Assembly: GCA_021201535.1 (NCBI GenBank)
Contig: JAJQEU010000109.1
Location: forward strand, 1,998-65,997
Length of the DNA stretch: 64,000 nucleotides
Source of the DNA: Clostridiales bacterium
GTDB taxonomy: Bacteria > Bacillota > Clostridia > Lachnospirales > Lachnospiraceae
Direction of reading: 5' to 3'
The notes beneath the pieces were generated by a model. The model did not search any database. It was not told the DNA's origin and saw nothing but the letters and a program-made list of their open reading frames with translations. The stretch's first letter is position 1. Every line of letters starts with the position of its first letter. Position numbers and translations under genes: made by a program. This document shows, piece by piece, positions 34,756 through 61,820 of the stretch.

Positions 34756-34781
34756 AAATCCCCGGCTTAAGCCGGGGATTT
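34756..34781. repeat. Perfect 26-bp palindrome (CCCCGGCT family, copy 1)
   Basis: AAATCCCCGGCTTAAGCCGGGGATTT. Confidence 0.8.
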
Positions 34782-37797: not shown

Positions 37798-38534
37798 TAC
37801 ACCCTCTCCTCTGCACTTCCATATAAAACGCCACAAACAGGCCGGCATATACGGTCAGCATAAAAAACATCGACACATACCAGTACCTGTTCCCGGAAAT
37901 ATTCACAACAGAATCCATAAAAAAGGCTGAAATCAGCTCTGTCCGGTCTCCCGCACCTGAAAAGCTTTCATTCAGTAATCTCTGTAATACCTGTATGTAA
38001 ATATAATTAAGAAGAAACGGCAGGCAGAGCAGCATATATTTATCCCGGATTAAAATGGCCGCGCCCAAACCGAACACACACGCAAACATGCCGTACAGAA
38101 AAATCCCCAGAAGCCTCTTCACCACAAATATCGTTATTCCGGCGCCGCCCCCGTAAAGCTGAAGCCAGATCGTCTGTTCATCCTGGGGAAATGCAGAAAA
38201 CCCCGGAAATACCGACATCATCACAAGTCCAAAAATGCCATATCCCGCCGTAAAACCAATCCCCCCTGCCAGAGCGCCCCCTGTCAGTTTAGATATACTG
38301 TATCTGAAATTCCCCATACGGATCAGCTGAAATCCTGTCTCCCCGCTCTGCCGCTCCGAAGATAACGTTACCAGATATCCAAAACTCAAAAGCAAAGGAA
38401 GCAGCAGCGGAAGCCAACCGCTTAACACCTGCATCCACATCACCAGATCGCTTTTCCCGATTTCCGCTGCCGCCTCCTTTTCCGTTTGCAGCATCAGCGC
38501 AAAAATCGTAATACTCTTTCCGGTATAATCATAA
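37790..38534 (-). pseudogene. ABC permease-like gene, 3' fragment (split by the IS)
   Basis: Hydrophobic ORF whose native frame resumes at ..DYTGKSITIF just outside the IS inverted repeat. Confidence 0.75.
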
Positions 38535-40398: not shown

Positions 40399-40505
40399 TA
40401 ATCCGCAATGGAGGATAAACATAATGTCAACACACCCGCGACCATTAACAGGACAAAGGGGAAATGCAGACACTTCATTAATTCCGTTTTTATACAGCGC
40501 AGCAT
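40399..40505 (-). pseudogene. ABC permease-like gene, 5' fragment (split by the IS)
   Basis: GGGGAG RBS, then MLRCIKTELMKCLHFPFVLLMVAGVLTLCLSSIAD running into the IS end. Confidence 0.75.
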
Positions 40506-40519
40506 GTTTCTCTCCCCTT

Positions 40520-41836: not shown

Positions 41837-41868
41837 GGCGCTCCCCTCCTCTACAGACAAAATATCAC

Positions 41869-44505: not shown

Positions 44506-44525
44506 CCCCCGGCTTTAGCCGGGGG
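44506..44525. repeat. CCCCCGGCT palindrome, copy 2
   Basis: CCCCCGGCTTTAGCCGGGGG. Confidence 0.75.
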
Positions 44526-44788: not shown

Positions 44789-45496
44789 ATGTCAGATTCA
44801 CAGAGCACCCATACCATCTCCACCGATTTCATGGACTGTTTTCTGACGCTCTCCCGGGGCAGCAAACGTCTGGAAGCATTAGGACAGCCTGAATTTTTGA
44901 AAAAGGGAACCATTCTCGTCCGTTCCGGTGAAATCCCCGGATATTGCTATATTGTCCGGACGGGACGCGTCATCTGTTATGAGTTCTCCTTCAACGGAGA
45001 GCAGCGGATCTACAATTTTATGGAACCCGGTTCCCTGCTTCTGGAGGAGTTTCTGCTGTTTGACAGACCGTGTCCGATTTTTTTCGCGACAGCGCTGGAT
45101 TCCGAGTTGGTAAAAATCACGAAACAGGATCTGACCGACGCGCTGCGGCGGGATTTTGATATCGTCATGGACGTCTGCGAATCCATCTCCGCCAAACACC
45201 TTTCCGCGATGGAATACCAGCGCGTAGGGTACCATCAGGATGCGGGCTGGCAAATCTGCCGTTTTCTCCTGCTTCTGATCGAGCATTACGGGGAAAAAGA
45301 GAATGGCCGGATACAGATAACGGAAAAGTTTTCCCATCAGATGATCGCCGATTTTCTGGGCATGAACCGCGTTACGGTCAGCCGAAAGCTGAAGGAGCTC
45401 CGCTCTCTCGGCCTGATTGCCTCTGAAAAGGGGAAACTCAGTGTTCCGGACGTCAACGCTATCAAAAAGTACATGGACTCTATTCAGGGATTTTAG
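44789..45496 (+). CDS. Crp/Fnr family regulator
   Basis: cNMP-binding barrel (CYIVRTGRV...GEQRI) and HTH SHQMIADFLGMNRVTVSRKL. Confidence 0.92.
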   Translation: MSDSQSTHTISTDFMDCFLTLSRGSKRLEALGQPEFLKKGTILVRSGEIPGYCYIVRTGRVICYEFSFNGEQRIYNFMEPGSLLLEEFLLFDRPCPIFFATALDSELVKITKQDLTDALRRDFDIVMDVCESISAKHLSAMEYQRVGYHQDAGWQICRFLLLLIEHYGEKENGRIQITEKFSHQMIADFLGMNRVTVSRKLKELRSLGLIASEKGKLSVPDVNAIKKYMDSIQGF

Positions 45497-45511
45497 GAAG
45501 GAACTGCCGTC

Positions 45512-46222
45512 ATGAAAAATCCAAACTACGTAAAACCTGTCAGTTTGTGGAATTCCTCCCGGATTCTTTCGCCGGACTTTATTCTGCCCTGTCTGGAAAA
45601 GCTTGGTTCTGCGAAAAAAGTTCCGAAAAACACTTATATTTACCGTTCCGAGGAGATTCCGGACTGCTGCTATATCGTAAAAAGCGGGGAGGTCATCGCT
45701 TTGGAGACGACCTCCGGTGGAAATGAGTTCCTCCATTTCCTTATGGACGAAAACGCCATATTCGGGGACGTCAATATGCTGATGGAAAAACCTCTGCCCA
45801 TCCGCTTCCGCACAGCGACGGACTGCGAGTTAATCTGCATCCCGAAGGAAAAACTGATGACGGCGATCGCACAGGATTCCCGCATTTTCATGGAACTGTA
45901 TCTCTCCGCCGCCAACAAGTTTCTGGATTCCATAGAAGAGCTGAGGGAATTTAAGCTCTATCCGGCATCCTGGCGTCTGATTAAGATGCTTCTTACTTTC
46001 GCGGACAAATACGGAACGGATTACGACGGAAAGCTCCTCATCCGACGCAAACTGAGCATCAACTATCTGACCGCCCTCATCGGCGTCAACCGCGCCACCA
46101 CTATCCGGTCGCTGAACGGCCTGAAAAAAGAGAAGCTGATTGAAACCGTCAACGGCTTCTACTGCATCCGGGATCCGGAAGCCCTCAAAAGATATCAGGC
46201 TCGCCTTGCCGAGGATCTGTAG
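45512..46222 (+). CDS. Crp/Fnr family regulator (tandem paralog)
   Basis: CYIVKSGEV...IFGD and HTH LTALIGVNRATTIRSL. Confidence 0.92.
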   Translation: MKNPNYVKPVSLWNSSRILSPDFILPCLEKLGSAKKVPKNTYIYRSEEIPDCCYIVKSGEVIALETTSGGNEFLHFLMDENAIFGDVNMLMEKPLPIRFRTATDCELICIPKEKLMTAIAQDSRIFMELYLSAANKFLDSIEELREFKLYPASWRLIKMLLTFADKYGTDYDGKLLIRRKLSINYLTALIGVNRATTIRSLNGLKKEKLIETVNGFYCIRDPEALKRYQARLAEDL

Positions 46223-46254
46223 TAAGGAACTGTTCAAAAATAACTTTGCACCGG

Positions 46255-47373
46255 TTATTTTTCGGCAGTACTGACCGCGTGCGTCAATATAAATTCCCTT
46301 GCTTTGTCCCGGATCAGCTGCGCCTCCAGCGCATCCCGATCCAACGTCCGGCAAACCTCATCAAAATCCGCCGCGCACTGCTCTGCAATCCGCTCCATTG
46401 CCTGAAATACCTCCGGCTCGCCGACCCGGATCCCCTCGCGATCCGCCACCGCCGTAAACAGCACATCAAACAACGCCGCATCCCTGGCCTGATCCCTGTG
46501 TTCATCTCTCCACTGCTTTTCACTGAGTTCCATCGACCCAAGCCGGGTTTCAAACATCTCGTCACAAATTTCATCGTTGCTCATGGACGACTTTAAGTGT
46601 GCCCTCTTTGTCTGAATCTCACGCAGCTTCTGATCAAAATCCGCCGGAAGGTCATGATAACGCCTGACGCACTCTTTCACCCCTGCAAGAAAACAGTCGA
46701 TTTCTATTCCCTGTTGGTCTGCCGAGACAGACTGAAGCATATAATCCATGGCTTCCGCGCGAACCTGAGACATCGGCCGGTGTACATCCGCCGCGTGATA
46801 CGCCTCTCGCAGCAGATAAACACATTCTGTCAACATACGGCACACCGGATCCTGCACGGCAGCTGCTTTTTCCCGTGCCTCCATGGCATCCAGGCGGGCT
46901 TCCGTCATCGAATCCGGCAGGACGGTTTTCATATTTCTGCAGGCTTTCGTCAGCACGTCCGCCGCAAATCTCTCCTCATCATCCCGCGGCACATCGGTCC
47001 GGATCCCTTTATAGGGACCTAATGTCGCATCCGGATATACATCCGCTTCCACAAGAAAACGGACGCCTCCGTCCCCACGCCAGGTTATCTCCCGCAGACA
47101 GGGTTTCCCTACGGGATGAAGACGCGTTTCCCTCACGTACTGCCGGTACGCTGCGGGAATGCACAGATCGAGTGCTTCGTCATAAAGGACCCGCGGTCCG
47201 TATATTTTTTCGATTTCCTCCCGCGGCGCCAGTCCCGGTGCGTATCCGGGCACAACGATTCTATCCGTATGTTCCAGATACGCGTCATGGAGCGCCTTCG
47301 CGAACTCCTCCGGCTCCAGAATCAGCTCCGTTGTGATCGCGCCGTCCTTCCTCTCCTCGTGTTCTGCTCTCAT
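46255..47373 (-). CDS. Atypical trigger-factor-like protein (N and C domains, no FKBP domain)
   Basis: Tig N-domain pattern (VPG..PG.AP..EIEKIYG...YDEA...LGPYKG) joined to a Tig C-domain pattern (LPDSM.E...D.M; LF.AVADREGI.V.E). Confidence 0.75.
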   Translation of the reverse strand: MRAEHEERKDGAITTELILEPEEFAKALHDAYLEHTDRIVVPGYAPGLAPREEIEKIYGPRVLYDEALDLCIPAAYRQYVRETRLHPVGKPCLREITWRGDGGVRFLVEADVYPDATLGPYKGIRTDVPRDDEERFAADVLTKACRNMKTVLPDSMTEARLDAMEAREKAAAVQDPVCRMLTECVYLLREAYHAADVHRPMSQVRAEAMDYMLQSVSADQQGIEIDCFLAGVKECVRRYHDLPADFDQKLREIQTKRAHLKSSMSNDEICDEMFETRLGSMELSEKQWRDEHRDQARDAALFDVLFTAVADREGIRVGEPEVFQAMERIAEQCAADFDEVCRTLDRDALEAQLIRDKAREFILTHAVSTAEK

Positions 47374-47388
47374 ATCCGCCCTCCGATC

Positions 47389-48039
47389 CTACAGAATCAC
47401 CTTCGTTTCCGTACCGATCCCTCTCAGAACAGACATAAGGATGGCGGCGTCGTGCTCCTGCGCGTACTTTTCAAGGATATCCCGAAATGTTTTTTCCTCA
47501 TCCTCCTCCCGCGCCAGAGCGCCCAGTTCTATCAGATCCGCCCCGTAGCCGCTCATTTCGTCCAGCTTTTTCAAAAGCTCATCTTCCTCCGGCATGCGAT
47601 CCGGATAAATCCAGGTCAACACCGACTTCCGGTTATAATTGGCCGCCTCAAAAAGAATCGACCGTGTCGCATCCTCATAGGGGAGCAGCGGTGCGCTGAT
47701 CAGATCCGTGCCCTGCTTTGCCGCCTGCACAGCCAGCCTGGCGATATACATATATTTTGCCGGGTGTTTTCCCCCGATCACCGCATCCCGGAAGCTGAAC
47801 ATCAACGGTTTTTCTTTCGCCGCCTCCCGCACCGCTTTCAGTGCGGACGGCACCTCCTTAAAGGTAATCTCAAAGATATCGTCATGCTCGTCGCTGCGCC
47901 ACTCGATCGCCGCCACAGCCGGGTCGGCCGCCAGCGCTTCTGTCTGTGCGATGATATCTTTCCTGGAAGCCGCTTTCACGATACCGATGGCTGCTCCCGC
48001 TGTCAATTCTGTCCGGTTGATTTTAATTGTTCTGCTCAT
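47389..48039 (-). CDS. Type I 3-dehydroquinate dehydratase (AroD)-like protein, catalytic residues absent
   Basis: IEWRSD, PLMFSFR...GG and GADL.E.; His and Schiff-base Lys positions substituted; C-terminus short. Confidence 0.7.
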   Translation of the reverse strand: MSRTIKINRTELTAGAAIGIVKAASRKDIIAQTEALAADPAVAAIEWRSDEHDDIFEITFKEVPSALKAVREAAKEKPLMFSFRDAVIGGKHPAKYMYIARLAVQAAKQGTDLISAPLLPYEDATRSILFEAANYNRKSVLTWIYPDRMPEEDELLKKLDEMSGYGADLIELGALAREEDEEKTFRDILEKYAQEHDAAILMSVLRGIGTETKVIL

Positions 48040-48419
48040 TTCCCTGTTTCTTCCTTTCCCTCTGTACCAGATCTTTTTTTAAAAATCGCCGCTACGTTTC
48101 TTCCATATTTAAATTCATAAGAGATCTCATCCATCCTCGCATGCGTACAGGGACTCCGGTCATCCCGGACGGGATTATATAATCCTCCGGCATGCACAAA
48201 CTGCAGACCGACGCCCTCCGTGGACAGGCTGGCGGACACGGTCAGCATGCCCTCTCCCCTGTCCGCGCCGCAGATATTTAAAAACAATTCCAGCGCGGAG
48301 GCCGTAACCGCTTCCTTCCACTCGCCGGAAAATCCGGAATCCGCGTCGCCAAGGCACCGCAGATACTCTTCAAACCACGGCAGGTTCTCCCGCGCCGGAA
48401 CAATGGCCAGCTTTTCCAC
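48036..48419 (-). CDS. Degenerate RsbW/anti-sigma HATPase-like small protein
   Basis: GTG start overlapping the upstream TAG, GGAGGTG RBS; ELFLN N-box and MDEISYEFKYGRN tail. Confidence 0.55.
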   Translation of the reverse strand: MEKLAIVPARENLPWFEEYLRCLGDADSGFSGEWKEAVTASALELFLNICGADRGEGMLTVSASLSTEGVGLQFVHAGGLYNPVRDDRSPCTHARMDEISYEFKYGRNVAAIFKKRSGTEGKEETGK

Positions 48420-48850
48420 TAGCGGATCACCTCCACTTCCTCCTCCTGTCTGGAACACAGAAAAGCCTCGTGCCCTTCCTCCAGCTCGCGAACATCCGCC
48501 TCCCGCAGATCCGCTCCGGTCAGCAGCATTTCCTCGACACGCGCCAGAAGCTCCAGCCGGTTTTTGTCTTCCGGAGATGCGTAAAACAGCGACATCCGGC
48601 TGATCGCTCCAAACCGGTTGATTTCCCTCGACAGATGAGGAAGAAGTGCCAGTTCCGTGAGCGAAAGCTCCCATGGGTCGCCCACGGGCCGATCTTCCGT
48701 CTGTCCGGCCGCAGGCAAAGGGTGAAACACGCACGTCACCCCGCCGCTGGTATACTCCTCGCCCATGACCGCCTGAAGCTTTCCGTACTCTTCCCGGATA
48801 TAAAAATCCCGTTCTTCACGAATCAAATCCCGGATTTTATCTCTGTCCAT
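48419..48850 (-). CDS. Hypothetical protein (143 aa)
   Basis: Overlaps both neighbours, GGAGG RBS; no motif recognised. Confidence 0.65.
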   Translation of the reverse strand: MDRDKIRDLIREERDFYIREEYGKLQAVMGEEYTSGGVTCVFHPLPAAGQTEDRPVGDPWELSLTELALLPHLSREINRFGAISRMSLFYASPEDKNRLELLARVEEMLLTGADLREADVRELEEGHEAFLCSRQEEEVEVIR

Positions 48851-50384
48851 ATCTTCCCTCCCTGTCAAATCCATCTAAGTCCAATTGTTCCAGACGGGCG
48901 ATCCTGTCTGTGATACTCTTTTTTCGCTCCTCAAACTGCAGTTCCCTGTTATACGTATAATATTTTTCACATCCGTAATGTCCGATAAACCGTGCGCAGT
49001 AATAGTTCGCCGTGAGCTCGGTCACAAGAATCAGCATCTCATCGCCGTCCGAAAAAGCTTTTTCACAAAAATCAAATGTATTTTGGAGAATCCGCTGCGC
49101 TTCCTCCACCTCGCTCCGCAGAGAAAACAGGGTATCGTCATAGGTCTCCCGGATGATCGTAAAATCGTCCTCACCGGCGTTCTTTTTTAATATCTTTTCC
49201 CGGTACAACTCGAGCTGCGCGGCAACGCGGCGGGTTTCCTTTTGCTTTTCAGGGGACAGGGATGAGGATGCCCTGCCCTTCGCAATCTCCTCCCTCATTT
49301 CCCCGCAGTATTTTTCCAACAGCTCTGCTGCGGGAGCACCGTCCGCAATCTCCGGCCCAATCTGCCGAACCAGCCTGACCAGACGGGCGAGCATATCCTC
49401 CGTGTCGCAGATGCCTCTCATTTTCGTCGTAACCGCCCCAAAGATAATTCCCAGAAGAGAAAACCTCTCGTCTATTTTAGCCGTCGAAGCCCGCGCGACA
49501 ATATCCTCGGAAACCGTTCCGTCCAGGATCGCGTCGATTTTATAATCGCTCCGGTATTTGTGGTACAGGTCATAATAAATAGCAAAATCCCTGGCGATCT
49601 TCGGATCCTGCAGATACTGGCAGACCAGCCTGTCGTTGACGACCAGCCCGTTTTCTTCATACAGCTTTATCATCTCCGAGAGATCCTCCCAGCTTCGCGC
49701 GGTCACAAAAGTTTTGCCGTCCACAGTACTTTGAACCCGGTAAAAATCATCCGTTTTCGCGTAAAGATACGTCATGACCGCCGGATGTACGCCGTTCCTG
49801 TAAGCATAATCCTTCCAGACCTCATAATCCGGCTCCACATCGATCCGTTTCAGGCGATCCCACGTGACAATATCAAAATCCCGAACCGATTTATTATACT
49901 CGGGCGGGTTTCCCGCAGTCACTACGATCCACCCCTCCGGCAGCCTGTGCTGTCCGAAGATCTTAAACTGCAGAAACTGCAGCATACAGGGCGCGAGCGT
50001 CTCGGAAATGCAGTTGATCTCGTCCAGGAAAAGAATCCCCTCCGTGATGCCGGTATCCCGCATCAGGTCATAGACCGATCCGATGATCTCGCTCATGGTG
50101 TACTCGGAAACCTGATACGTCTTTCCGCCGTACTCTTTTTCCACAATATAGGGAAGGCCCAGGGCGCTCTGTCTGGTATGGTGCGTCATGGAATAGGAGA
50201 TCAGACCCACGCCCAGCTCCGAGGCAATCTGCCGCATGACGGCCGTTTTTCCGATTCCGGGCGGACCGATCAGAAACACCGGCCGCTGTTTTTCCGTGGG
50301 GATTTTATAACATCCGAATTCATCCTTCGTCAGATAAGCTTTCAGCGCTCCCCGGATCTGTTCTTTTGCCTCAGCGATATTCAT
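48837..50384 (-). CDS. MoxR-type AAA+ ATPase with a long helical C-terminus
   Basis: GPPGIGKT, LFLDEIN, AGNP and WDRL. Confidence 0.88.
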   Translation of the reverse strand: MNIAEAKEQIRGALKAYLTKDEFGCYKIPTEKQRPVFLIGPPGIGKTAVMRQIASELGVGLISYSMTHHTRQSALGLPYIVEKEYGGKTYQVSEYTMSEIIGSVYDLMRDTGITEGILFLDEINCISETLAPCMLQFLQFKIFGQHRLPEGWIVVTAGNPPEYNKSVRDFDIVTWDRLKRIDVEPDYEVWKDYAYRNGVHPAVMTYLYAKTDDFYRVQSTVDGKTFVTARSWEDLSEMIKLYEENGLVVNDRLVCQYLQDPKIARDFAIYYDLYHKYRSDYKIDAILDGTVSEDIVARASTAKIDERFSLLGIIFGAVTTKMRGICDTEDMLARLVRLVRQIGPEIADGAPAAELLEKYCGEMREEIAKGRASSSLSPEKQKETRRVAAQLELYREKILKKNAGEDDFTIIRETYDDTLFSLRSEVEEAQRILQNTFDFCEKAFSDGDEMLILVTELTANYYCARFIGHYGCEKYYTYNRELQFEERKKSITDRIARLEQLDLDGFDREGRYGQR

Positions 50385-50415
50385 TGCGCTCCTCCTGAAA
50401 ATCAATTACTGCCGG

Positions 50416-50526
50416 CCATCCCGGTGTTTCCTCTCTGATGAAAAACATGACCGTCCCGGCGTTTTTTACTCCGATGAAAAAGATAGCCGTCCCGGCGTTT
50501 CTGCTCAGATGGCAAACATAGCCATC
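50416..50526. repeat. Degenerate ~35-bp tandem triplication overlapping the LRR gene stop
   Basis: Units at 50416, 50451 and 50487: CCRTCCCGGYGTTT...GATG..AAA.AT.. Confidence 0.7.
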
Positions 50527-52379: not shown

Positions 52380-52438
52380 ACGAACACCTCTTACCAGCTG
52401 TTACAGCGCTCGGTTGCGCGATACCCTGATACATATGA

Positions 52439-54040: not shown

Positions 54041-54120
54041 CGCAGCCTCCTATTCCGAACCGGTGTGGTTATTCCCGCTCCGGCAACTGATTCGCAATCT
54101 CTGTCGCAGCCTCCAGTTCC

Positions 54121-56559
54121 TTAATCCCGCTCCGGCAGCGGCGGCATCGTATCAAACTTCTGTCTCAGATCCTCCGCTCCGAATTCAGTCTTTCCCGTTT
54201 TTTCATTTTCACGAAGCGCTCTCCACAGGCGTTCCGGCGTAATCGGAAGCTCCCGAAGCGTCAGGCCGGTCGCGTAGTTGATCGCGTTGCCGATCGCCGA
54301 ACCGACCGGTGCGGTACTTCCCTCGCCCGCCTCCTTCGCCCCAAGCGGTCCTTCCGGATCGTATTCGCTGCAGATAAAGGTCCTGATATTCGGCATATCC
54401 AGAGCCGTCGGGAAACGGTAATCACGAAAGCTCGGATTTAAGTGCCGACCCTCGCTGCTGTACTGGCACTCCTCATAACAGGTAAAACCGAAACCGAGCA
54501 GTACGGAACCTTCGATCTGCCCCTCCACCGCGCGGATATTCAGCGGCCTTCCGCAGTCATGCCCGAACGCGAAATCGTCAAGCGAAACCTGTCCGGTCTC
54601 CTTATCCACCGTAACCTTCGCCGCCGATGCGGAGAAAGAATACGCGGTCGCGTAGTTTCCTACATTTTTCACATAAATATCCTTGTCGCCCTCATGCGCG
54701 AACGAACCCACGCCCACGACGCAGCGTCCGAAGTTTTTCTCCTCATATCCGAACAGCGCCTCATTGTAAGAAATATTCTTTTCCGGGTCGCCCTTGATAA
54801 AGACGCGGTGGTCCTTCATGGTAATGTCGGAGGGTTTGCACCCCCACTCCTCTGCCCAGTGGGAAAGCAGCTTGAACTTTGCGTCTCCCACCGCCCGGTG
54901 GCAGGCGTTTCCGCCGAGGAAAGTCACACGGGAGCCGAAGGAACCCGCATCCCACGGCGTCGTCGTCGTGTCGGACTGCACACACTTAACCTCGTCCATC
55001 CGGAGCCCCAGCTCCTCCGCCACGATCATCGTCATCACCGTATCGCATCCCTGCCCGATGTCGTTGGCGCCGGTAAATACAACCGCGTATCCCTCACGGT
55101 TCAGCCTGACGATCGTGGAAGCCGAACAGTAATGGGGCGTTACCAGTACGGGGAACCCGGTGCCGGACATGAATCCGGAGCCCGACAATCCCACGCCCTC
55201 CCCGCTTCCGAGCGGATACCGCCACCTGTGTTCCCAGTCGATCGCATCAGCAACCGCCGTCAGGCACTCGTCAAATTTACAGGAGGTAAATTCCAGACCG
55301 GTAGGGCCGGTATAATACGGCGTAATCTCATTATCACGGCGCAGCTTCAGCGGATCGATGCCAAGGGAATTCGCCACCTCATCCATGTGTATCTCATGGG
55401 CGAAATGTACCTGACACGCCGAATAACCTCTCATGGCGCCGGAAGCGGGGTGGTTGGTGTATGGCCTCCGCGCCGTCATGTCGATGTTTTCCACCTTGTA
55501 GGGAAAGGTCGCGCAGATCAGCGAAAGGGTATTGGCCGCAATGCCGGATCCTCCGTAGGCTCCCCCGTCCAGGATATGCTTGCAGCGTTTTGCCAGAAGC
55601 TTTCCTTCCTTTGTGAAAGCGCTCTCAATCTCAAAGGAAATGGGATGTCTGGTTCTTGTACACATAAATACCTCATCCCGCTTTAAAATGCACTTGACCG
55701 GATGGCCGGTCATCTGTGCGAACTTGCACGGGCAGAGCTCATGGGCGAATGCGTCCAGCTTTCCGCCGAACCCGCCGCCGATCATCGGCTTGATCAGATG
55801 CACCTGGCTCTCCGGCACACCAAGCCCCCAGGCAATCCAGTAACGGCTGACATAAGCGCCCTGCGTCGTCGTCCAGATCGTATATTCCCCATTCTCGTAC
55901 TTTGCGATCGCCCCGTGCGGCTCAATCGCCGCGTGAACCATCTCCTGCGTCTTATAATAATGCTTATCCGTGTAATAGGCTTCCTCAAACACCCGGTCCG
56001 GCTCTCCCGCCTTCATGGTGGTAAAAATAGAGAGATTACCCGTCCCCGGATAATGGATCGCCGGAGCGTCCGGCTGCATGGAGTAAAACGGATCCAGCAC
56101 CGGTTCCAGCGGTTCGTATTCTACCTTTACCAGCGCCGCCGCCTCCGTGGCGGCCTCCTCCGTCGTGGCGCAGACCGCGGCGACCTCGTCGCCGGCCATA
56201 CGGACCTTTTTACGGCACAGCGGCTCCTTGTCCGCCAGCTCCTTGAAAGCCTCAGGGTTCCCCAGGTTGTGTCCCTCCGGGAAATCCTTTCCGGTAAGCG
56301 TCGCCTTTACCCCCGGCACCTTCAGCGCTTCCGTGAAATCAATGCTTTTGATGAGCGCATGGGCGTAGGGGCTGTGTACCAGCTTACAATACCATGTGCC
56401 GGGCAGATCCACGTCGTCCGTATAGACCGCGGAGCCGGTTACCTTTGCCTCCGCGTCGATCCTGATATACGCGTTTCCCCTGCCTGCCAGTTCATAATCC
56501 TCGGGATCCTTGTATACGCTCTCTACATCCGCGTAATATTCTTTCGCCATAACCGCCAT
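54121..56559 (-). CDS. Xanthine-oxidase-family molybdopterin-binding large subunit (HcrA/CoxL-like)
   Basis: AKVTG...Y.DD, HAAIEPH, TTTQ, GGGFGGK, GAMRG, DIGQG, SRVTF.GGNA, EGQIEG and GAKEAGE; TAATG coupling to the 2Fe-2S gene. Confidence 0.93.
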   Translation of the reverse strand: MAVMAKEYYADVESVYKDPEDYELAGRGNAYIRIDAEAKVTGSAVYTDDVDLPGTWYCKLVHSPYAHALIKSIDFTEALKVPGVKATLTGKDFPEGHNLGNPEAFKELADKEPLCRKKVRMAGDEVAAVCATTEEAATEAAALVKVEYEPLEPVLDPFYSMQPDAPAIHYPGTGNLSIFTTMKAGEPDRVFEEAYYTDKHYYKTQEMVHAAIEPHGAIAKYENGEYTIWTTTQGAYVSRYWIAWGLGVPESQVHLIKPMIGGGFGGKLDAFAHELCPCKFAQMTGHPVKCILKRDEVFMCTRTRHPISFEIESAFTKEGKLLAKRCKHILDGGAYGGSGIAANTLSLICATFPYKVENIDMTARRPYTNHPASGAMRGYSACQVHFAHEIHMDEVANSLGIDPLKLRRDNEITPYYTGPTGLEFTSCKFDECLTAVADAIDWEHRWRYPLGSGEGVGLSGSGFMSGTGFPVLVTPHYCSASTIVRLNREGYAVVFTGANDIGQGCDTVMTMIVAEELGLRMDEVKCVQSDTTTTPWDAGSFGSRVTFLGGNACHRAVGDAKFKLLSHWAEEWGCKPSDITMKDHRVFIKGDPEKNISYNEALFGYEEKNFGRCVVGVGSFAHEGDKDIYVKNVGNYATAYSFSASAAKVTVDKETGQVSLDDFAFGHDCGRPLNIRAVEGQIEGSVLLGFGFTCYEECQYSSEGRHLNPSFRDYRFPTALDMPNIRTFICSEYDPEGPLGAKEAGEGSTAPVGSAIGNAINYATGLTLRELPITPERLWRALRENEKTGKTEFGAEDLRQKFDTMPPLPERD

Positions 56560-57041
56560 TATGCACGCACCTCCCTCGCCAAAACCTTCGCCGCGGCGTC
56601 GATTGCCTCCACGATCTTCGCATAGCCTGTACATCTGCACAGGTTGCCCGCGATACCGTCCCTGATCTCCTGCTCCGTGGGATGCGGATTTTCATGCAGC
56701 AGAGATAACGCGGACATGATCATGCCCGGTGTACAGAAGCCGCACTGCAGCGCCCACTTATCCATAAATTCTTTCTGCACCGGATGCAGCACTCCGTCCT
56801 TTTTGACACCTTCGATCGTCACGACCTCATGGCCGTCCGCCTCCACGGCAAGCATCATGCAGGAATCAATCGCCGCCCCGTCCAGGAGAATGGTGCACGC
56901 GCCGCATTCTCCTTCCTCGCAGCCTCTTTTCGTACCTGTCAGATGCATCTGTTTCCGGAGGAAATCCACCATGGTAAGCCCGTCGGCGACCAGCTCCTCC
57001 ACATCCTCTCCATTAAGTTTAAAGCTAATGATATGTTTCAC
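56559..57041 (-). CDS. 2x[2Fe-2S] small subunit (CoxS/XdhC-type ferredoxin subunit)
   Basis: GCEEGECGACT, QCGFCTPG and GNLCRCTGY. Confidence 0.96.
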   Translation of the reverse strand: MKHIISFKLNGEDVEELVADGLTMVDFLRKQMHLTGTKRGCEEGECGACTILLDGAAIDSCMMLAVEADGHEVVTIEGVKKDGVLHPVQKEFMDKWALQCGFCTPGMIMSALSLLHENPHPTEQEIRDGIAGNLCRCTGYAKIVEAIDAAAKVLAREVRA

Positions 57042-57056
57042 GCTGATTCCTCCTTC

Positions 57057-57944
57057 CTACACTTTCCGCGTCGCGACCGCTTCTTTTATGGCACGCTTTG
57101 TATAGACGCGCACCATATCCGCCCGGTACTCCGCGGATGCCCGGACGTCGGAAATGGGCTTCGCCTCTCCCATGGCCAGCCGGCCGGCTTCCTCCAGCGT
57201 CTCCTCAGTGATCTCTCTGCCTTTTAAGAACTCCTCCGCCTGACAGGCGCGCAGGGGAGTGATCCCGACGCCTCCCATGGCGATTCTCACATCTGCAACC
57301 GTTTTTTTATCCATCCGGATCCACGCCGCCACTCCGATAATCGCCAGATCCATCGCCTTCCTCACAGAATGCTTAAAATAAGCGGATCCCTCACCGGACT
57401 TTAACGCCGATATCAGAATCTCCGTCACAATCTCCCCGCCGTTTTTATCCAGGCAGGTCTTTTTGACGCCCTTGAAAAATTCTCCGATCGGGATGATCCT
57501 GCCGCCTCCCGGACGGTAAGTGGAAACCTCCGCGTTCATCGCCAGTAAAATCGAAGCGGTATCCGCGGACGGCGATGCGTTGCAGATATTTCCCGCCATG
57601 GTTCCCTTGCGGCGGATCTGAGCGGAAGCCACATAATGCGCCGCCTGAGAAACCGCGGGCATCTTTTCCCTGACAAGGTCAGATGTCTGGATGGCGAACA
57701 GCTTTGTGTTCGCGCCGACCCTTAGCCCTCTCCCTTCTTCAAATTCCAGCGTATCCAGCCCCGGGATCCCCTTGATATCGACCACAGAATCCACATCCTT
57801 TAAGACACGCTCTTTCAGCAAGATGATCACGTCCGTCCCGCCGGACATAAGAATCGCGCGCGGACCAAGCTCTGTCATTTTCGCAGAGGCTTCCTCCAGA
57901 CTTCGGACCGCGTAATAATCAATTGCCGGTAAAGCCATACTCAT
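57057..57944 (-). CDS. FAD-binding medium subunit (CoxM-type)
   Basis: GGTDV, ASAQIRRKGTMAGNICNASPSAD and ISDVRASAEYR; no [4Fe-4S] Cys insert. Confidence 0.94.
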   Translation of the reverse strand: MSMALPAIDYYAVRSLEEASAKMTELGPRAILMSGGTDVIILLKERVLKDVDSVVDIKGIPGLDTLEFEEGRGLRVGANTKLFAIQTSDLVREKMPAVSQAAHYVASAQIRRKGTMAGNICNASPSADTASILLAMNAEVSTYRPGGGRIIPIGEFFKGVKKTCLDKNGGEIVTEILISALKSGEGSAYFKHSVRKAMDLAIIGVAAWIRMDKKTVADVRIAMGGVGITPLRACQAEEFLKGREITEETLEEAGRLAMGEAKPISDVRASAEYRADMVRVYTKRAIKEAVATRKV

Positions 57945-58094
57945 TTCCTTCCTTTCTTTGTTGCTTCTTTTGACAAAAGTTTATCAAAAAGAACCCGGGG
58001 AAGCCATGCGCATATGCGACAGGGGTTGCAAATGCGACTAACGCATTTTTATTTTCCCTGCAGCGTTCCCGATCTCATCCTTCTTTTCATCCTG

Positions 58095-58757
58095 TTATAT
58101 GCTTTCCGATCCGTCCGGAAGCGGCGCGGGACGAACGCCGACGCGTACCACCTGAAACCGCTCTCTGCCGTTCTCTTCCTGTCGCGACAGCGTCGTAACG
58201 CCTCCGCCGGGCTGCGGAATCGCCATCACATCTTTTGCGCTTTTCATTTCAATCTGTTCTGTCAGACATATGGCCGCGCGTATAACACCCGCATGCGCGA
58301 CGACGATCAGATCATCCTCCGGCGTCTGCCGGGAAAGCAGAGACAGTTCTTTCAGGAAGCGCTCTCCGGCCTCCCGAAAGGTTTCCGCGCCCGGCACCCG
58401 ATAATCGCCAATGTTCTCTCCTCTCTTTTCATATTCCCCGGGATACCGCTCCCTGATTTCACGAAACGTCAGACCGTCCCAGGCGCCCATGGACGCTTCC
58501 CGCAGATTCTCCCGCACCAGAATATCTGGTTTTCCATCGGAAAACAGCAGATCTGCGCTTTCCCTGCAGCGCAGCAGCGGACTGGTATAGACTTTTCCCC
58601 CGGTACAGATCCTTTGCTCTGCCATCTGTCCCGCAAACCAGTTTCCCAACAGTTCCATCTGCCGGATCCCGCGCGCGCTGAGCGGGAGATCCGTACAGCC
58701 GATGCAGCGTCCCTCCCGGCGCGCCGCCGTTTCCCCGTGTCTGATAAGATAGATCAT
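58095..58757 (-). CDS. Histidine phosphatase (PGAM/CobC-like)
   Basis: IRHGET, TSPL.RC, E...G.WDG, GAE and VVAHAGVIR. Confidence 0.9.
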   Translation of the reverse strand: MIYLIRHGETAARREGRCIGCTDLPLSARGIRQMELLGNWFAGQMAEQRICTGGKVYTSPLLRCRESADLLFSDGKPDILVRENLREASMGAWDGLTFREIRERYPGEYEKRGENIGDYRVPGAETFREAGERFLKELSLLSRQTPEDDLIVVAHAGVIRAAICLTEQIEMKSAKDVMAIPQPGGGVTTLSRQEENGRERFQVVRVGVRPAPLPDGSESI

Positions 58758-58760
58758 CCT

Positions 58761-59681
58761 TTACCCCTGCTTTATGAAAACCGCCGTCCCGTGAAGATCC
58801 ATAAGGGGAACGACAAACAAACCGTTTTCCTCACAGTAACGCCGCGCCGCCCTGCGGACGCCCGGAAACTGCAGGCTGTTATAATCATGGAGGACAATGC
58901 ATCCGCCCGCCGCCAGCCTGGGATAGAAAAACCGCAGCCCCTGATAAACCGGCTCGCCAAGATCAGGATCCAGACTGACCAGCGCAAGTTCTCCCATCTC
59001 ATCCGACAGTCCCCCCGAAACACTATCCGGGAAATATCCTGCAATCAGGCGCGCCTTCTCAGGATAAGGAAGCCTTTTTTCGACTGTCTCCACACTCGTA
59101 TCCGAGAAATCGCACAGACGCGCAGAGGCCTTTCTTCCATCGGGGACAATCCTCCTCTCGATCTCGAGATCCCGCGCATCAAAACCACAGAACGTGTCAA
59201 ACAGAAAAAGCCGGCGTTCGGGAAACAGCCGGTTCAGCTCGACCGCCGTATCTCCCCGATAGACGCCAAGCTCCGCAATGCTGCCGGAGACTCCTCTCTC
59301 TCGGATTTCCCGCGCCAGCAAACGGATCACGGCAAGCCTGGCGTCCTGGCTGCCGCGGTAAAACAGAGCCTCCCTTATGTCCCCCACAAAACCGGCCTGT
59401 AAAATCTGATTTTTGATCCCGGTATTCGCCTGTCTGTTTAAAGTCCCGATACAGATCACATCCGGCCGCCGATCCAAAGCACACAACAGCGGCAGGACCG
59501 GAACGCCATCGATCTCGCTTCCCTGCAATGTTTCATCGTTATCAATATAACAGATCAGCTGGTGATCCGCAGGCAGCCAGGCCGAAATCATCCGCCCAGC
59601 CTGCCCGGCGCCGAAAATTGCCGTTCGAACCGCGTCATTCGTCCGGTCGTTGATTCTGTCACACTTTTTAATTGTCGTCAT
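58761..59681 (-). CDS. TylF/MycF/NovP-family O-methyltransferase with an N-terminal Rossmann-like domain
   Basis: IFGAGQAG N-domain; AELGVYRG, LFDTFCGF, GYFPDS, LVSLDPDL and LHDY; ATGA overlap with xdhC. Confidence 0.85.
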   Translation of the reverse strand: MTTIKKCDRINDRTNDAVRTAIFGAGQAGRMISAWLPADHQLICYIDNDETLQGSEIDGVPVLPLLCALDRRPDVICIGTLNRQANTGIKNQILQAGFVGDIREALFYRGSQDARLAVIRLLAREIRERGVSGSIAELGVYRGDTAVELNRLFPERRLFLFDTFCGFDARDLEIERRIVPDGRKASARLCDFSDTSVETVEKRLPYPEKARLIAGYFPDSVSGGLSDEMGELALVSLDPDLGEPVYQGLRFFYPRLAAGGCIVLHDYNSLQFPGVRRAARRYCEENGLFVVPLMDLHGTAVFIKQG

Positions 59682-60718
59682 ATTGCCTCCAGGAGTACAT
59701 CCAGAACACCGCCGCAGACCATGCCCTCGTCCTCCGCTGCCTCCGCGGTCATATCTACATGAATCAGCTCCGGTGTGAAGGAATCCCTGATCATAAGCTG
59801 CCGGCCACGGTTTGCCACCTCGGCTTCCACACAGCCGCCGCCGATCGTTCCGATCGTCCTTCCATCCGGCAGAATCAGCATCTTGGTTCCGGTCTCCCGA
59901 GGTGCGGAACCCCTGCGCCTGACAATCGTCGCCAGAACCTCTCTGGATGCGCCGCACCCCGGAATCTCCGGAGGCTCCAGAATGCCTTTTAATATTTCCT
60001 TTGAGTATCCGCAGTGATTCTTTTTCTTATTCTTGACCTCCACAATCTGAGCCATGACCGAGATCGCGATTTCTTCCGGGGTCTCCGCCCCGATATCCAG
60101 GCCGATCGGAGAATAGACCTGATCCAGCACGCTTTTATCTACTCCCTCCGCAACAAGAGATTCCTTCACAAGAGCGACCCTCCGCCGGCTTCCGATCATA
60201 CCGATATAACCGTGCGGCTTTGCCGCGATCGCCCGCAGACATTCCCTGTCATACCGATGCCCTCTGGTCACGATCACAAAATAGGTGTCCGCGTCTCCGC
60301 TCACCTGCCGGAGGCTGTTTTCAAAAGAATCAACAAGAATTTCATCAGTGCCCTGCCGTCTCGCGTTGTTTGCGTACGTCGGCCGATCCTCCAGTACGGT
60401 AACATGGCAGCCCAGCATCCGACCCATGGAAATGATCGGCATGGACACATGCCCGCCGCCGCAAATCACAATTTTTTTCTCGTTTCCGAGTATCTCACTG
60501 TAAATACGATTCCCCGCCAGATCGGCCAGACCGCAGATATCAATCCCTGAAATTGCTTTTTCGTAACTGGAAAAAAAGCCCCTGTCCTCTGTTTCCCACA
60601 CGAGTTTTCCATTTGAAAACAGCGCTTTTTTTCCGATTTGATCACCCTCGATCACTGTAAAGACCTGATTCCTGTAATTTGGGTTGATCCTGCTGATTTT
60701 TTCATATAATTCGATCAT
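59678..60718 (-). CDS. XdhC/CoxI family Moco chaperone (Rossmann domain before the CoxI domain)
   Basis: GGGHVS, IVTRGH..D, YIGMIGSRR, PIGLDIGAETPEEIAIS, GSAPR..G.KM, GTIGGGC.E and CGG. Confidence 0.92.
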   Translation of the reverse strand: MIELYEKISRINPNYRNQVFTVIEGDQIGKKALFSNGKLVWETEDRGFFSSYEKAISGIDICGLADLAGNRIYSEILGNEKKIVICGGGHVSMPIISMGRMLGCHVTVLEDRPTYANNARRQGTDEILVDSFENSLRQVSGDADTYFVIVTRGHRYDRECLRAIAAKPHGYIGMIGSRRRVALVKESLVAEGVDKSVLDQVYSPIGLDIGAETPEEIAISVMAQIVEVKNKKKNHCGYSKEILKGILEPPEIPGCGASREVLATIVRRRGSAPRETGTKMLILPDGRTIGTIGGGCVEAEVANRGRQLMIRDSFTPELIHVDMTAEAAEDEGMVCGGVLDVLLEAI

Positions 60719-60766
60719 ATAAAGCCCCTCCATTCTGATCTGATTCATATGATATTGCTATTGCTT

Positions 60767-61711
60767 CTACATAATATTCTCCCGCCGCCAGTCAGCGTCC
60801 GGAAAGATATCGTCATACTTCTTTTTCGCAAACTCTTCTATCTGGCCCACGTATTCCTCATACAACGCCAGCAGCCGTCTGCCCCGTTCGGACACTGACG
60901 CCGTGCCTCCGTTTCGTCCGCCCGGCTTTCGCTCAATAATGCGATAGCCCAGTTCATCCTCCGCGAGCTTAATGATATGCCATCCCTTGCTGTAGGAAAT
61001 ACCCATTTTTTCACACGCATCCCGGACATTTCCCAATCGATCTACCAGACGCAGCAGCGTGGCCGTTCCCTGACCGAAAAAATGCTGTTTACCGGCCAGA
61101 TGCACCCGCACCTCCGCCCGCATCAGACGCTGATCGTGAAGACGTACCAGTCTCTCAAAATCCGTCTGCGTATCTGCGTCAATCATGGCGCCTTCATCCG
61201 TTACCGGAAGCAGATACGGCACGATATCCATGGACAAAAAAGCTCCTTTCAGCCCTCCTTCACCCTCATAACGCAGAATGTCCGGCAGCAGCCCGGCGTC
61301 GATCAGAACCGGATGCCCCCACTTTTCCCGGCTGACGGGTATAATCAGCGGTTCTTCCCGCGAAAGCTCTTCATGCACCGTATGTTCCGTAAACAAAGCG
61401 ACATCCGCCGGGCAGAAAAAGACGCGGTCACACCGTCCTTTAAGAAAATCAAAACCGATTTTTGCCGAGTCAAGCATCTGCGTCGTCTCGTAATTGCGAT
61501 TCTCCAGGAAAGTAACTCCCAGATTGTTCAGGCTTTTCCTTAACTCCTCCGAGCGGTAACCGGTAACCACAACGATGTCCCTGACCCCGCATTTTCTGAA
61601 ATTTACAATGACCCTTTCCGTCAGCATCATGTCCCCGATCTTCATCATCTGTTTAAACTGCTTCATTCGGGTGGACATGCCCGCCGCAGCAATTACCGCA
61701 CCTGTTCTCAC
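60767..61711 (-). CDS. MocA/MobA-like nucleotidyltransferase fused to a ModE-type winged HTH
   Basis: IAAAGMSTRM, D...F, GHPVLI and DADT..D; C-terminal A...MGISYSKGW...ER..GG..GG...S..G. Confidence 0.85.
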   Translation of the reverse strand: MRTGAVIAAAGMSTRMKQFKQMMKIGDMMLTERVIVNFRKCGVRDIVVVTGYRSEELRKSLNNLGVTFLENRNYETTQMLDSAKIGFDFLKGRCDRVFFCPADVALFTEHTVHEELSREEPLIIPVSREKWGHPVLIDAGLLPDILRYEGEGGLKGAFLSMDIVPYLLPVTDEGAMIDADTQTDFERLVRLHDQRLMRAEVRVHLAGKQHFFGQGTATLLRLVDRLGNVRDACEKMGISYSKGWHIIKLAEDELGYRIIERKPGGRNGGTASVSERGRRLLALYEEYVGQIEEFAKKKYDDIFPDADWRRENIM

Positions 61712-61752: not shown

Positions 61753-61791
61753 AATAATCGGTCATGTAGCCTATACTACAAACCGATTATT
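61753..61791 (-). terminator. Terminator after aspS
   Basis: AATAATCGGT...ACCGATTATT stem with inner TGTAG/CTACA and a T-run on the minus strand. Confidence 0.7.
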
Positions 61792-61800
61792 ATTTACAAG

Positions 61801-61820
61801 CCCCCGGCTGAAGCCGGGGG
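61801..61820. repeat. CCCCCGGCT palindrome, copy 3
   Basis: CCCCCGGCTGAAGCCGGGGG, 15 nt after the aspS stop. Confidence 0.75.

Follow-up and report, generated by a model that had tools for sequence, protein, structure and literature searches.

Among the 64,000 nucleotides (nt) of contig JAJQEU010000109.1 analysed here (this whole stretch is referred to as the window), which derive from a Clostridiales bacterium of the Lachnospiraceae, two blocks of minus-strand genes encode a molybdenum enzyme of the three-subunit xanthine oxidase (XO) family together with cofactor maturation factors, a MoxR-like ATPase with a VWA-domain protein and a leucine-rich repeat (LRR) protein as partners, a trigger factor-like (Tig-like) protein and several further proteins, and two Crp/Fnr-type regulator genes converge on them. 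As judged from its recurrence in related loci, this gene set appears to be a conserved functional unit of uncultured gut Clostridia. The locus may therefore represent a conserved regulon, in which a three-subunit XO-family enzyme is accompanied by its own maturation and control genes working by the mechanism proposed in the Discussion, a reading to which we give about an even chance of being correct.

Organization of the locus

Inspection of open reading frames (ORFs) and start codons, combined with Pfam and NCBIfam scans, gave 14 minus-strand genes at 46255-61711, which fall into a block 1 of four genes (61711 down to 58095) and a block 2 of ten genes (57944 down to 46255), separated by a gap of 150 nt. 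The initial annotation of this DNA had counted 13 genes, although its own list sums to 14; its two blocks, its convergent Crp/Fnr genes, the ATGA, TAATG and TAGTG junctions and both flanking palindromes were borne out by ORF and sequence inspection, and its domain calls were confirmed by the family scans with the exception of an RsbW-like label (see below). Block 2, which includes the enzyme subunits, consists of the following genes, given in the direction of reading.

57057-57944, minus strand: FAD-binding medium subunit (FAD_binding_5 and CO_deh_flav_C), without [4Fe-4S] insertion
56559-57041, minus strand: iron-sulfur (FeS) subunit for two [2Fe-2S] clusters (Fer2 and Fer2_2, 8 Cys)
54121-56559, minus strand: catalytic subunit (Mo subunit) for molybdopterin cytosine dinucleotide (MCD) as cofactor, of the 4-HBCR-like clade (4-HBCR, 4-hydroxybenzoyl-CoA reductase)
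52439-54040, minus strand: VWA protein with DUF2201_N and DUF2201 domains (Pfam)
50505-52379, minus strand: BspA-type LRR_5 protein, third member of the triad (LRR_5, E=4e-137)
48837-50384, minus strand: MoxR-like AAA+ ATPase of 515 amino acids (aa) (AAA/AAA_5; weak bpMoxR match, E=1e-4; Walker A GPPGIGKT, Walker B ILFLDE)
48419-48874, minus strand: u151, an orphan protein of 151 aa without a Pfam, NCBIfam or PDB match
48036-48419, minus strand: u127, a protein of 127 aa that forms the N-terminal domain of an AroD-like fusion in relatives
47389-48039, minus strand: type I dehydroquinase-like (AroD-like) pseudoenzyme, C-terminally truncated (PF01487, E=1.9e-14)
46255-47373, minus strand: Tig-like protein of 372 aa, with Trigger_N (4-129) and Trigger_C (252-363) and without the peptidyl-prolyl isomerase (PPIase) domain

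The overlapping junctions are ATGA between xdhC and tylF of block 1 and between the genes for u127 and the AroD-like protein, TAATG between the FeS and Mo genes and TAGTG between the u151 and u127 genes; in addition, the 3' end of the MoxR gene is overlapped by the u151 gene. In relatives, gaps of 5-14 nt or overlaps extend from the FAD gene through to the gene for TylF or MatE. As inferred from such spacing and from synteny, the locus would be co-transcribed. Scans for sigma-70 promoters and terminators within the locus gave nothing informatively above the shuffled expectation, and a search of sequencing runs for RNA retrieved none that contained the window, the runs with an L088-type locus being DNA-like assemblies (contigs of more than 100 kb) or an assembly labelled as that of an isolate.

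Conservation of the gene set among relatives

Synteny was checked over about 140 related loci, starting both from MoxR and from the Mo subunit. The Mo-side sample comprised 35 contigs with a Mo subunit of at least 70% identity and at least 8 kb of downstream sequence. The joint occurrence suggested in the initial annotation was largely recovered in this sample: the Mo gene is accompanied by those for u151 and the Tig-like protein in 32 of the 35 contigs and by the full VWA-LRR-MoxR triad in 28, to which L083 and L084 may be added (VWA gene running off the locus edge), while Crp/Fnr (30/35), TylF (24/35) and AroD-like genes (15/35) recur as well. Three arrangements were encountered, namely the colinear one of the window and L001, that of L083, where VWA-LRR-MoxR-XdhC-(MocA+HD)-MoCF_biosynth-MFS converges on FAD-FeS-Mo-TylF-HisPhos, and that of L063, where TylF-LRR-VWA-MoxR lies opposite Mo-FeS-FAD with a Mo subunit of 53% identity. 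The positions of the mocA, xdhC, tylF and phosphatase genes vary within the neighbourhood among relatives, which are labelled as Oscillospiraceae, Lachnospiraceae or Clostridiales. At Mo identities of 66% and below (L085-L087), the partners are missing, and Crp is replaced by a sigma-54 activator.

Since the triad is absent from some enzyme-bearing lineages, only u151 and the Tig-like protein can be called invariant partners, whereas the triad is frequent but dispensable at least in cis. The initial annotation had made its reading depend on the downstream genes not occurring independently of the molybdenum enzyme in relatives. This dependence was found for the Tig-like protein and u151, but not for the VWA, LRR and MoxR proteins, which stand alone elsewhere and have been lost beside an 85%-identical enzyme in at least one lineage.

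Some individual loci deserve mention. L097 (Mo 90%, MoxR 77% identity) is the sole close relative that has a triad while neither a u151 nor a Tig-like gene could be detected in the 10 kb downstream; it may be an exception or an assembly problem. A gene for a MatE efflux transporter directly follows the Tig-like or TylF gene in several relatives (L141:11294-12676, L142:11988-13364, L143:11112-12494, L003:7800-9161); the window lacks it and has the convergent Crp genes at that place instead. An L088-type locus (L088:10423-22000) is covered at about 98% identity by a 15.7-kb contig of a 2018 run labelled as a single organism (X4) and is also present in a 'synthetic metagenome' run, suggesting that a cultured strain with the locus may exist.

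The molybdenum enzyme

The Mo subunit contains the domains Ald_Xan_dh_C, MoCoBD_1 and MoCoBD_2 (Pfam E values from 1e-32 to 1e-67), a GGGFGG motif at residue 261 and the catalytic-Glu motif GAKEAGE at residue 740, and its closest PDB entry is 1RM6_A, which is matched over the full length (E=7e-111). The Mo subunit on the one hand and the FAD and FeS subunits on the other both place the enzyme in the three-subunit bacterial xanthine oxidase / molybdenum hydroxylase family, the members of which are soluble as a rule. An assignment as 4-HBCR (HcrABC) was rejected, because the score of the Mo subunit against the TIGR03194 model of the alpha subunit (596 bits) remains under the equivalog cut-off of 994.55 and the FAD subunit lacks the Cys-rich [4Fe-4S] insertion. 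The latter subunit has 295 aa and 3 Cys, and TIGR03195 aligns its residues 119-287 to profile positions 151-317, outside the HcrB insertion. An aerobic CO dehydrogenase was rejected likewise, since the Mo subunit contains no AYR motif and hence no CoxL loop (VAYRCSFR or the form II variant AYRGAGR). The enzyme most likely reduces or hydroxylates an aromatic or phenolic compound.

Between relatives, identities of 85-92% for the Mo and 81-88% for the FeS subunit compare with 58-67% for the FAD subunit, about 62% for MoxR, about 53% for the VWA and about 43% for the LRR protein and about 40% for u151 and the Tig-like protein, so that the Mo and FeS subunits appear to be under unusually strong constraint. 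The catalytic subunit is abundant in gut metagenomes, its 91%-identity cluster holding 1112 member sequences.

A shortened form of the Mo subunit was observed in a 1.5-Mb ENA contig (L081:10001-13761), where a protein of 81% identity and only 700 aa is followed by the u151 and Tig-like genes; upstream of it there are no FAD or FeS genes but an AAA_14/DUF4143 gene and a CRISPR-Cas array. Near-identical 703-aa copies of this type are numerous (P0132-P0146), and the L081 locus may be decaying or rewired.

The Tig-like protein, u151 and the u127-AroD-like pair

The Tig-like protein scores 100.9 bits against TIGR00115 (cut-off 180.2), the missing part being the central PPIase domain of the FKBP type. 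Its ribosome-binding signature reads PG[YF]A[PA]GLAP instead of GFRxGxxP in the closest clade and is further degenerate elsewhere, and no phmmer-level similarity to any solved trigger factor was detected. The family comprises 30 clusters, and wherever the gene neighbourhood was examined, it proved to be of this locus type; even its most distant members (39-48% identity) are encoded in an array FAD-FeS-Mo-VWA-LRR-MoxR-u151-(u127-AroD fusion)-Tig-(TylF)-MatE. The u151 family is similarly restricted, with 41 representatives among 1.84 billion cluster representatives, and was found only in this locus type.

No Pfam or NCBIfam match was obtained for u127 even at E<=10, and profile searches against PDB sequences gave no match for either u127 or u151. 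Single-sequence AlphaFold2 models were too poor for a fold search in the case of both u151 (pLDDT 50) and u127 (pLDDT 38; predicted local distance difference test), and the label RsbW-like given to u127 in the initial annotation, which would imply an HATPase_c-type fold with N-box and G-box motifs as in the GHKL anti-sigma kinases RsbW/SpoIIAB, was dropped as none of these sources supports it. In at least 10 relatives (L088, L091-094, L099, L124, L126, L128, L131, L141, L142), u127 and the AroD-like protein form a single protein of 336-350 aa (L088:18170-19204, L128:17819-19117, L141:8896-9906 and L142:8870-9922, corresponding to 47389-48419 of the window). This suggests that the gene is split in the window, either by a frameshift or naturally at the linker.

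Compared with the AroD enzymes of S. enterica and C. difficile, the AroD-like protein has the Schiff-base residue Lys170 replaced by Glu (GADLIELG versus GADIPKIA) and the general base His143 by Ile or Tyr. It scores 47.6 bits against TIGR01093 (cut-off 139.3) and ends before the C-terminal part of the barrel; the ELG motif is found in the fused relatives, too. The motifs EWR and FSFR are kept and align with Glu46/Arg48 and Arg82 of AroD, which we take to be the substrate-contact positions. The catalytically disabled folds noticed in the initial annotation find support in this protein, which lacks both catalytic residues, and in the VWA protein, the zincin-like motif of which is devoid of its Glu.

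The VWA-LRR-MoxR triad

The VWA protein has a complete conserved metal ion-dependent adhesion site (MIDAS; DTSxS, GGTD, FTDG) and a zincin-like motif H[LMIV]xLHCxFRH, which is an HxxxH without the catalytic Glu. Intact Walker A and B motifs, the full MIDAS encoded next to them and the conserved adjacency of the two genes place the pair among the MoxR-class ATPases with a VWA partner. The LRR_5 protein is probably cytoplasmic, its first 40 residues showing by eye no obvious hydrophobic signal-like stretch, and full-length LRR orthologues of 36-45% identity are present in all triads linked to the Mo gene. A 32-nt unit occurs in three direct copies (100%, 88% and 66% identity; spaced 35-36 nt) at 50433-50535, which extend from the LRR gene's 3' end into the gap before the MoxR gene. 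It looks like a local tandem duplication, which would have widened this gap to about 120 nt from the 5-14 nt seen in relatives.

More than 8000 MoxR homologues of 47-65% identity were found. In a MoxR-side sample of 80 species-level genome loci with 10-kb flanks, searched by tblastn with all window proteins, 73 have a DUF2201 VWA gene upstream in the same orientation, and an LRR_5 domain is carried by the gene directly adjoining MoxR in 46 of 54 cases. The triad was found in hundreds of genomes of Clostridia and Coriobacteriia, with at least 519 loci confirmed in a genome scan. It is a widespread autonomous three-gene cassette in Clostridia; a literature search returned no description of a DUF2201-VWA/LRR_5/MoxR triad. 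A reading of the triad as a defence system was rejected, because the PADLOC models gave no match beyond the generic P-loop, namely weak IetA/mad8 P-loop matches for MoxR and none for the other six proteins scanned. In neighbour-joining trees, the Mo-linked MoxRs form one clade, the branching of which is broadly congruent with that of the Mo subunits, pointing to one main recruitment followed by co-inheritance.

Block 1: cofactor maturation and associated genes

The four genes of block 1 are as follows.

60767-61711, minus strand: MocA-like molybdenum cofactor cytidylyltransferase fused to an N-terminal ModE/LysR-type helix-turn-helix domain (NTP_transf_3, E=2e-26; TIGR03310, E=2e-27; ModE_repress, E=3e-15)
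59678-60748, minus strand: XdhC-family molybdenum cofactor maturation/insertion factor (XdhC_C at 93-235, E=2e-41; XdhC_CoxI at 271-319, E=8e-21; NF045664, 267 bits)
58761-59681, minus strand: TylF-family O-methyltransferase dependent on S-adenosylmethionine (PF05711, E=2.5e-19)
58095-58757, minus strand: histidine phosphatase of branch 1, CobC/alpha-ribazole phosphatase-like (His_Phos_1, E=1.3e-43; RHG motif near the N terminus)

The MobA-like nucleotidyltransferase domain of the first protein and the XdhC_CoxI and XdhC Rossmann domains of the second assign them to the MocA and XdhC families; both remain under the equivalog cut-offs and are hence to be regarded as family members rather than proven orthologues. 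The XdhC protein has an unusual domain order, with the Rossmann domain placed ahead of the canonical XdhC_CoxI domain, which bears the GGGC motif, and with 90 N-terminal residues that resemble a degenerate CoxI domain; the homologue in L083 has the usual order of CoxI before Rossmann. This order may have arisen by circular permutation or by duplication followed by decay.

The histidine phosphatase scores 126.7 bits against TIGR03162, under the cut-off of 162.9, and its gene adjoins that for TylF in L083, L105 and L110. More distant relatives have MocA joined to an HD phosphohydrolase domain (L083:16245-17399) or followed by a His_Phos_1+HD fusion (L086:15289-17387), which may hint at the block 1 phosphatase serving the dinucleotide cofactor pathway rather than the substrate.

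Regulation

Two regulator genes and two candidate control regions were recognized.

44789-45496, plus strand: Crp/Fnr regulator 1 (Crp1; Pfam), relatives of which (45-50% identity) accompany loci with a TGTAG-N6-CTACA box
45512-46222, plus strand: Crp/Fnr regulator 2 (Crp2; cNMP_binding and HTH_Crp_2), relatives of which (41% identity) are encoded in the closest clade, immediately upstream of the FAD gene
61765-61780, upstream of mocA: putative Crp-type operator TGTAGCCTATACTACA (TGTAG-N6-CTACA), with a -10-like hexamer TAAACT 22 nt later, as a putative promoter of block 1
57945-58094, minus strand: putative promoter/operator region of block 2, with the palindromic elements AAATGCG-N5-CGCATTT and ATGCGCAT (comparison of upstream regions)

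The two regulator genes converge on the end of block 2, the second one stopping 32 nt from the stop codon of the Tig-like gene. Crp1 has no Cys cluster of the FNR type, and its nearest PDB entries are NtcA, Crp and DNR. The operator TGTAGCCTATACTACA is the only match to TGTAG-N6-CTACA in the window at one mismatch or less, with 0.43 expected. In relatives with Mo identities of 85-87%, a perfect box followed by TATAAT after 22 nt lies about 86 nt upstream of the FAD gene (L002, L107, L129, L110, L113), an arrangement that would correspond to the class II geometry of Crp/Fnr activation. In L107 and L129, the box also precedes mocA, where a divergent Crp1-like gene borders the same intergenic region. 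In the closest clade (Mo 88-92%), the element upstream of the FAD gene is instead ACGCAGGTGCATTTGCACCTGCGT...ATGCGCAT, accompanied by a Crp2-like regulator, and a degenerate copy of this element is found in the 150-nt gap of the window. From this distribution of operators and regulators across the clades, it is plausible that the two Crp paralogues of the window control one block each. A TTGAT-N8-GTCAA-like element just upstream of the ribosome-binding site of the FAD gene was considered as an FNR box and discarded, because it has a non-canonical spacing and relatives do not share it.

Borders and surroundings

The locus is bracketed by two exact copies of a palindrome CCCCCGGC-N4-GCCGGGGG, for which 0.05 matches are expected by chance.

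44506-44525: left-border GC-rich palindrome, terminator-like, with a T-run after it on the minus strand
61801-61820: right-border GC-rich palindrome just 3' of the aspS stop codon, followed by a second hairpin with a T-run that holds the Crp-type box

A third copy with 2 mismatches, TCCCCGGCTTAAGCCGGGGA, is located outside the locus at 34759-34778; this makes it probable that the two palindromes at the borders represent a generic terminator of this genome or an element resembling repetitive extragenic palindromes (REP-like) and not locus-specific borders. The locus is flanked by aspS on one side and by genes for a histidine kinase/response regulator (HK/RR) two-component system, an ABC transporter, a PDDEXK nuclease and a phosphotransferase system (PTS) on the other. 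The genes of the left flank are unrelated, so that the borders of the locus stand. Next to an ABC ATPase and the HK/RR pair, four consecutive minus-strand ORFs of 446, 524, 293 and 300 aa (36946-41860) have no Pfam match at E<=1e-5.

Discussion

In the mechanism proposed for the regulon, the Crp/Fnr paralogues would respond to effectors and switch on block 1 via the TGTAG-N6-CTACA box and block 2 via the GCATTTGC/ATGCGCAT element. MocA would make MCD, and XdhC would take care of its sulfuration and insertion. The Tig-like protein and u151 may act as a private holding or assembly chaperone for the apo Mo subunit, in analogy to PceT/RdhT, and the MoxR ATPase, the MIDAS-containing VWA protein and the LRR protein as an ATP-driven remodelling module that opens or assembles the complex, with the LRR protein as client adaptor. 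Recruited once, this triad would assist cofactor insertion or complex assembly without being indispensable, as a functional analogue of CoxD/CoxE. TylF, the CobC-like phosphatase and the u127-AroD-like protein would have the substrate, an effector or the cofactor as their target, which they would modify or bind. A dedicated assembly system had already been postulated in the initial annotation; this idea agrees with the conserved gene set and with the maturation factors MocA and XdhC, but does not extend to the triad, which is not dedicated, and the evidence for it consists of synteny and analogy.

Several observations weigh against the proposed mechanism, most of them concerning the triad. Enzyme genes are present in just 4 of the 80 MoxR loci (L001, L002, L003, L029), and the assumption that the locus had been expanded with these genes for the enzyme has to be abandoned, as a VWA gene in 73 and the enzyme in 4 of the 80 loci characterize the triad as a pre-existing stand-alone cassette. 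The flanks of the other 76 triads have no family in common (at most 3 of 119 genes), which also disposes of the idea that these triads adjoin other metalloenzymes. The L109-L113 lineage (Mo 85%), which is nested in triad-bearing relatives, lacks the triad and has u151 immediately after the Mo gene, and L081 and L082 (Mo 81%) carry only Mo-u151-Tig; the triad would thus be dispensable or supplied in trans. Because of the single recruitment event, the co-occurrence counts are not phylogenetically independent. Moreover, MoxR and the VWA protein lie outside the CoxD (AAA_3) and CoxE (VWA_CoxE) families, neither of which was reported at E<=0.01, and the roles given to u151, u127, the AroD-like protein, TylF and the phosphatase are guesses.

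Many of these points would also be expected under the main alternative, in which the triad had a function of its own, unrelated to the enzyme, such as a general remodelling of another client, and had been inserted once between the Mo gene and u151 and then inherited by linkage, leaving only MocA, XdhC and possibly the Tig-like protein and u151 to serve the enzyme. The stand-alone occurrence of the triad in most genomes, the lack of a recurrent family in its flanks elsewhere, the single clade of Mo-linked MoxRs, which implies a single event, the clean presence/absence polymorphism with u151 directly after Mo in L109-L113 and L081, and a loss nested within triad-bearing lineages all fit such a hitch-hiking cassette. 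It accounts less well for the triad staying beside the enzyme set through rearrangements, since in L083 it is arrayed with XdhC, MocA and MoCF_biosynth and not with the structural genes, nor for L063, which represents an independent juxtaposition with an enzyme of 53% identity. The location of the triad within the operon, at junctions of 5-14 nt in relatives, its retention over a divergence that reaches down to about 40% identity of the accessory proteins and the missing match to any defence-system model speak against it as well, and we consider this explanation possible, if rather doubtful.

The accessory proteins could also belong to a pathway instead of an assembly system, with TylF, the phosphatase, the u127-AroD-like protein, u151, the Tig-like and the LRR protein serving in the modification of a hydroaromatic or phenolic substrate, as ligand-binding pseudoenzymes feeding the Crp regulators or in a transporter-linked route. 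Such a role would find a parallel in the urolithin dehydroxylase locus ucd, the TylF and Crp/Fnr genes of which are co-induced by its substrate (PMC11760930), and would be compatible with the recurrent MatE gene downstream in relatives, with the EWR and FSFR motifs retained in the AroD-like domain despite the loss of its catalytic residues and with TylF and the histidine phosphatase being a conserved adjacent pair. Yet all characterised examples of the trigger-factor fold and of MoxR/VWA pairs belong to chaperone machinery (PMC8905343, PMC4240915), the AroD-like domain has a truncated C terminus and occurs in only 15 of 35 loci, and the His_Phos_1 and HD domains fused or adjacent to MocA in distant relatives point to the cofactor and not to the substrate, making this explanation unlikely. 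That the 17 kb are a chance mosaic of unrelated same-strand neighbours may be considered because internal promoters could lie in the window's gaps of 59-150 nt and the promoter and terminator scans were not significant, but it is hardly credible in view of the same set recurring in more than 30 contigs from genomes with different family-level labels, of Tig-like and u151 families found only in this context and of shared operators ahead of both blocks in the window or in relatives.

Returning to the regulon with its own maturation genes, a more specific version may be formulated, in which the DUF2201-VWA/LRR_5/MoxR set with its ATPase of about 500 aa would be an undescribed AAA+ chaperone system whose LRR adaptor passes on the 4-HBCR-like apo-enzyme for cofactor insertion, and the ribosome-independent, PPIase-less Tig paralogue with u151 a second, enzyme-private holding chaperone, jointly constituting a new maturation route for reductive XO-family enzymes in the gut microbiota. 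We put this forward tentatively, as a possibility rather than an expectation; if true, the locus would show the first identifiable client of the triad. The locus offers a first entry point for functional work on a widespread orphan cassette of three genes in Clostridia and on two families of orphan proteins, and the triad-less relatives provide a natural comparison.

Relation to known systems

The closest parallel in the literature is provided by the urolithin dehydroxylase loci of Enterocloster (ucdCFO/UcdhABC, uxd). Like the locus described here, they code for XO-family heterotrimers of gut Clostridia with an FAD, a 2x[2Fe-2S] and an MCD subunit, with 4-HBCR as the nearest characterised enzyme, without the [4Fe-4S] insertion, with TylF and Crp/Fnr neighbours and with MCD maturation of the MocA/XdhC type, this likeness being drawn from the published descriptions. 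The gene order is FAD-FeS-Mo here and C-F-O in ucd, and no Enterocloster protein is among the named matches of the Mo subunit down to 40% identity. Conserved neighbours that are co-induced with ucd encode two methyltransferases of the TylF type, one Crp/Fnr regulator and a pair of hypothetical proteins (PMC11760930; PMC12658268). It has been reported that the ucd enzyme has poor heterologous activity, which improves with co-expression of XdhC (10.1101/2025.01.17.632430). No MoxR, VWA or trigger-factor gene is mentioned in these three reports (PMC11760930, PMC12658268, 10.1101/2025.01.17.632430). The statement of the initial annotation that the combination was not known from any described locus needs to be qualified insofar as TylF and Crp/Fnr genes next to a 4-HBCR-like enzyme have already been described for ucd. 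Because the enzyme belongs to the clade that recently yielded the urolithin dehydroxylases, an aromatic compound from the diet or the host is its probable substrate. With heterologous expression being a bottleneck for such enzymes, the Tig-like protein with u151 and the MoxR/VWA/LRR set are candidates for co-expression.

HcrABC of Thauera aromatica (1RM6) shares the three-subunit architecture and the catalytic Glu motif with the enzyme studied here, the FAD subunit of which lacks the [4Fe-4S] insertion that defines the inverted electron flow of 4-HBCR; no CoA-ligase or benzoyl-CoA pathway genes are located near the locus.

For the accessory genes, the nearest precedent is the CoxD/CoxE/CoxF trio of MoxR-, VWA- and XdhC-like proteins serving aerobic CO dehydrogenase (PMC4240915, PMC3471820), with further precedent for XdhC itself (PMC2997495). 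In both cases, genes for a MoxR-class ATPase, for a VWA/MIDAS protein and for a protein resembling XdhC accompany those of an XO-family enzyme, and the proposed logic of an ATP-driven access to a buried site is alike. The proteins themselves differ, with an AAA/AAA_5 ATPase of 515 aa and a DUF2201 VWA protein with a zincin-like N domain here and CoxD of the AAA_3 and CoxE of the VWA_CoxE type there, so that MoxR and the VWA protein cannot be regarded as CoxD and CoxE counterparts by descent: they are not orthologues, as their Pfam families differ. In addition, the LRR protein is an obligatory third member here, the signature loop of the CuSMoO2 site is absent, and the cassette is mostly found away from molybdenum enzymes. 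Among the MoxR-VWA systems in general (NorQ/NorD, CbbQ/CbbO, RavA/ViaA and the ternary systems with bpMoxR, PF20030), an AAA+ MoxR gene adjoining a MIDAS-VWA gene is the common feature, and a third, variable component recalls the ternary systems; here this component belongs to the BspA-type LRR_5 proteins, and a zincin-like domain without Glu forms part of the VWA protein.

A counterpart of the Tig-like protein is known from reductive dehalogenases, which are served by the operon-encoded trigger-factor paralogue PceT/RdhT (PMC8905343). Both are trigger-factor paralogues encoded within the operon of one complex redox enzyme in anaerobic Firmicutes, together with regulators of the Crp/Fnr type (CprK-like in the dehalogenases). 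PceT retains the PPIase domain and binds a Tat signal peptide, whereas the Tig-like protein has no PPIase domain and is always paired with the orphan u151. Seen against all these systems, the known part of the locus is an XO-family cluster of the ucd/4-HBCR type, and its new part is the conserved accessory set.

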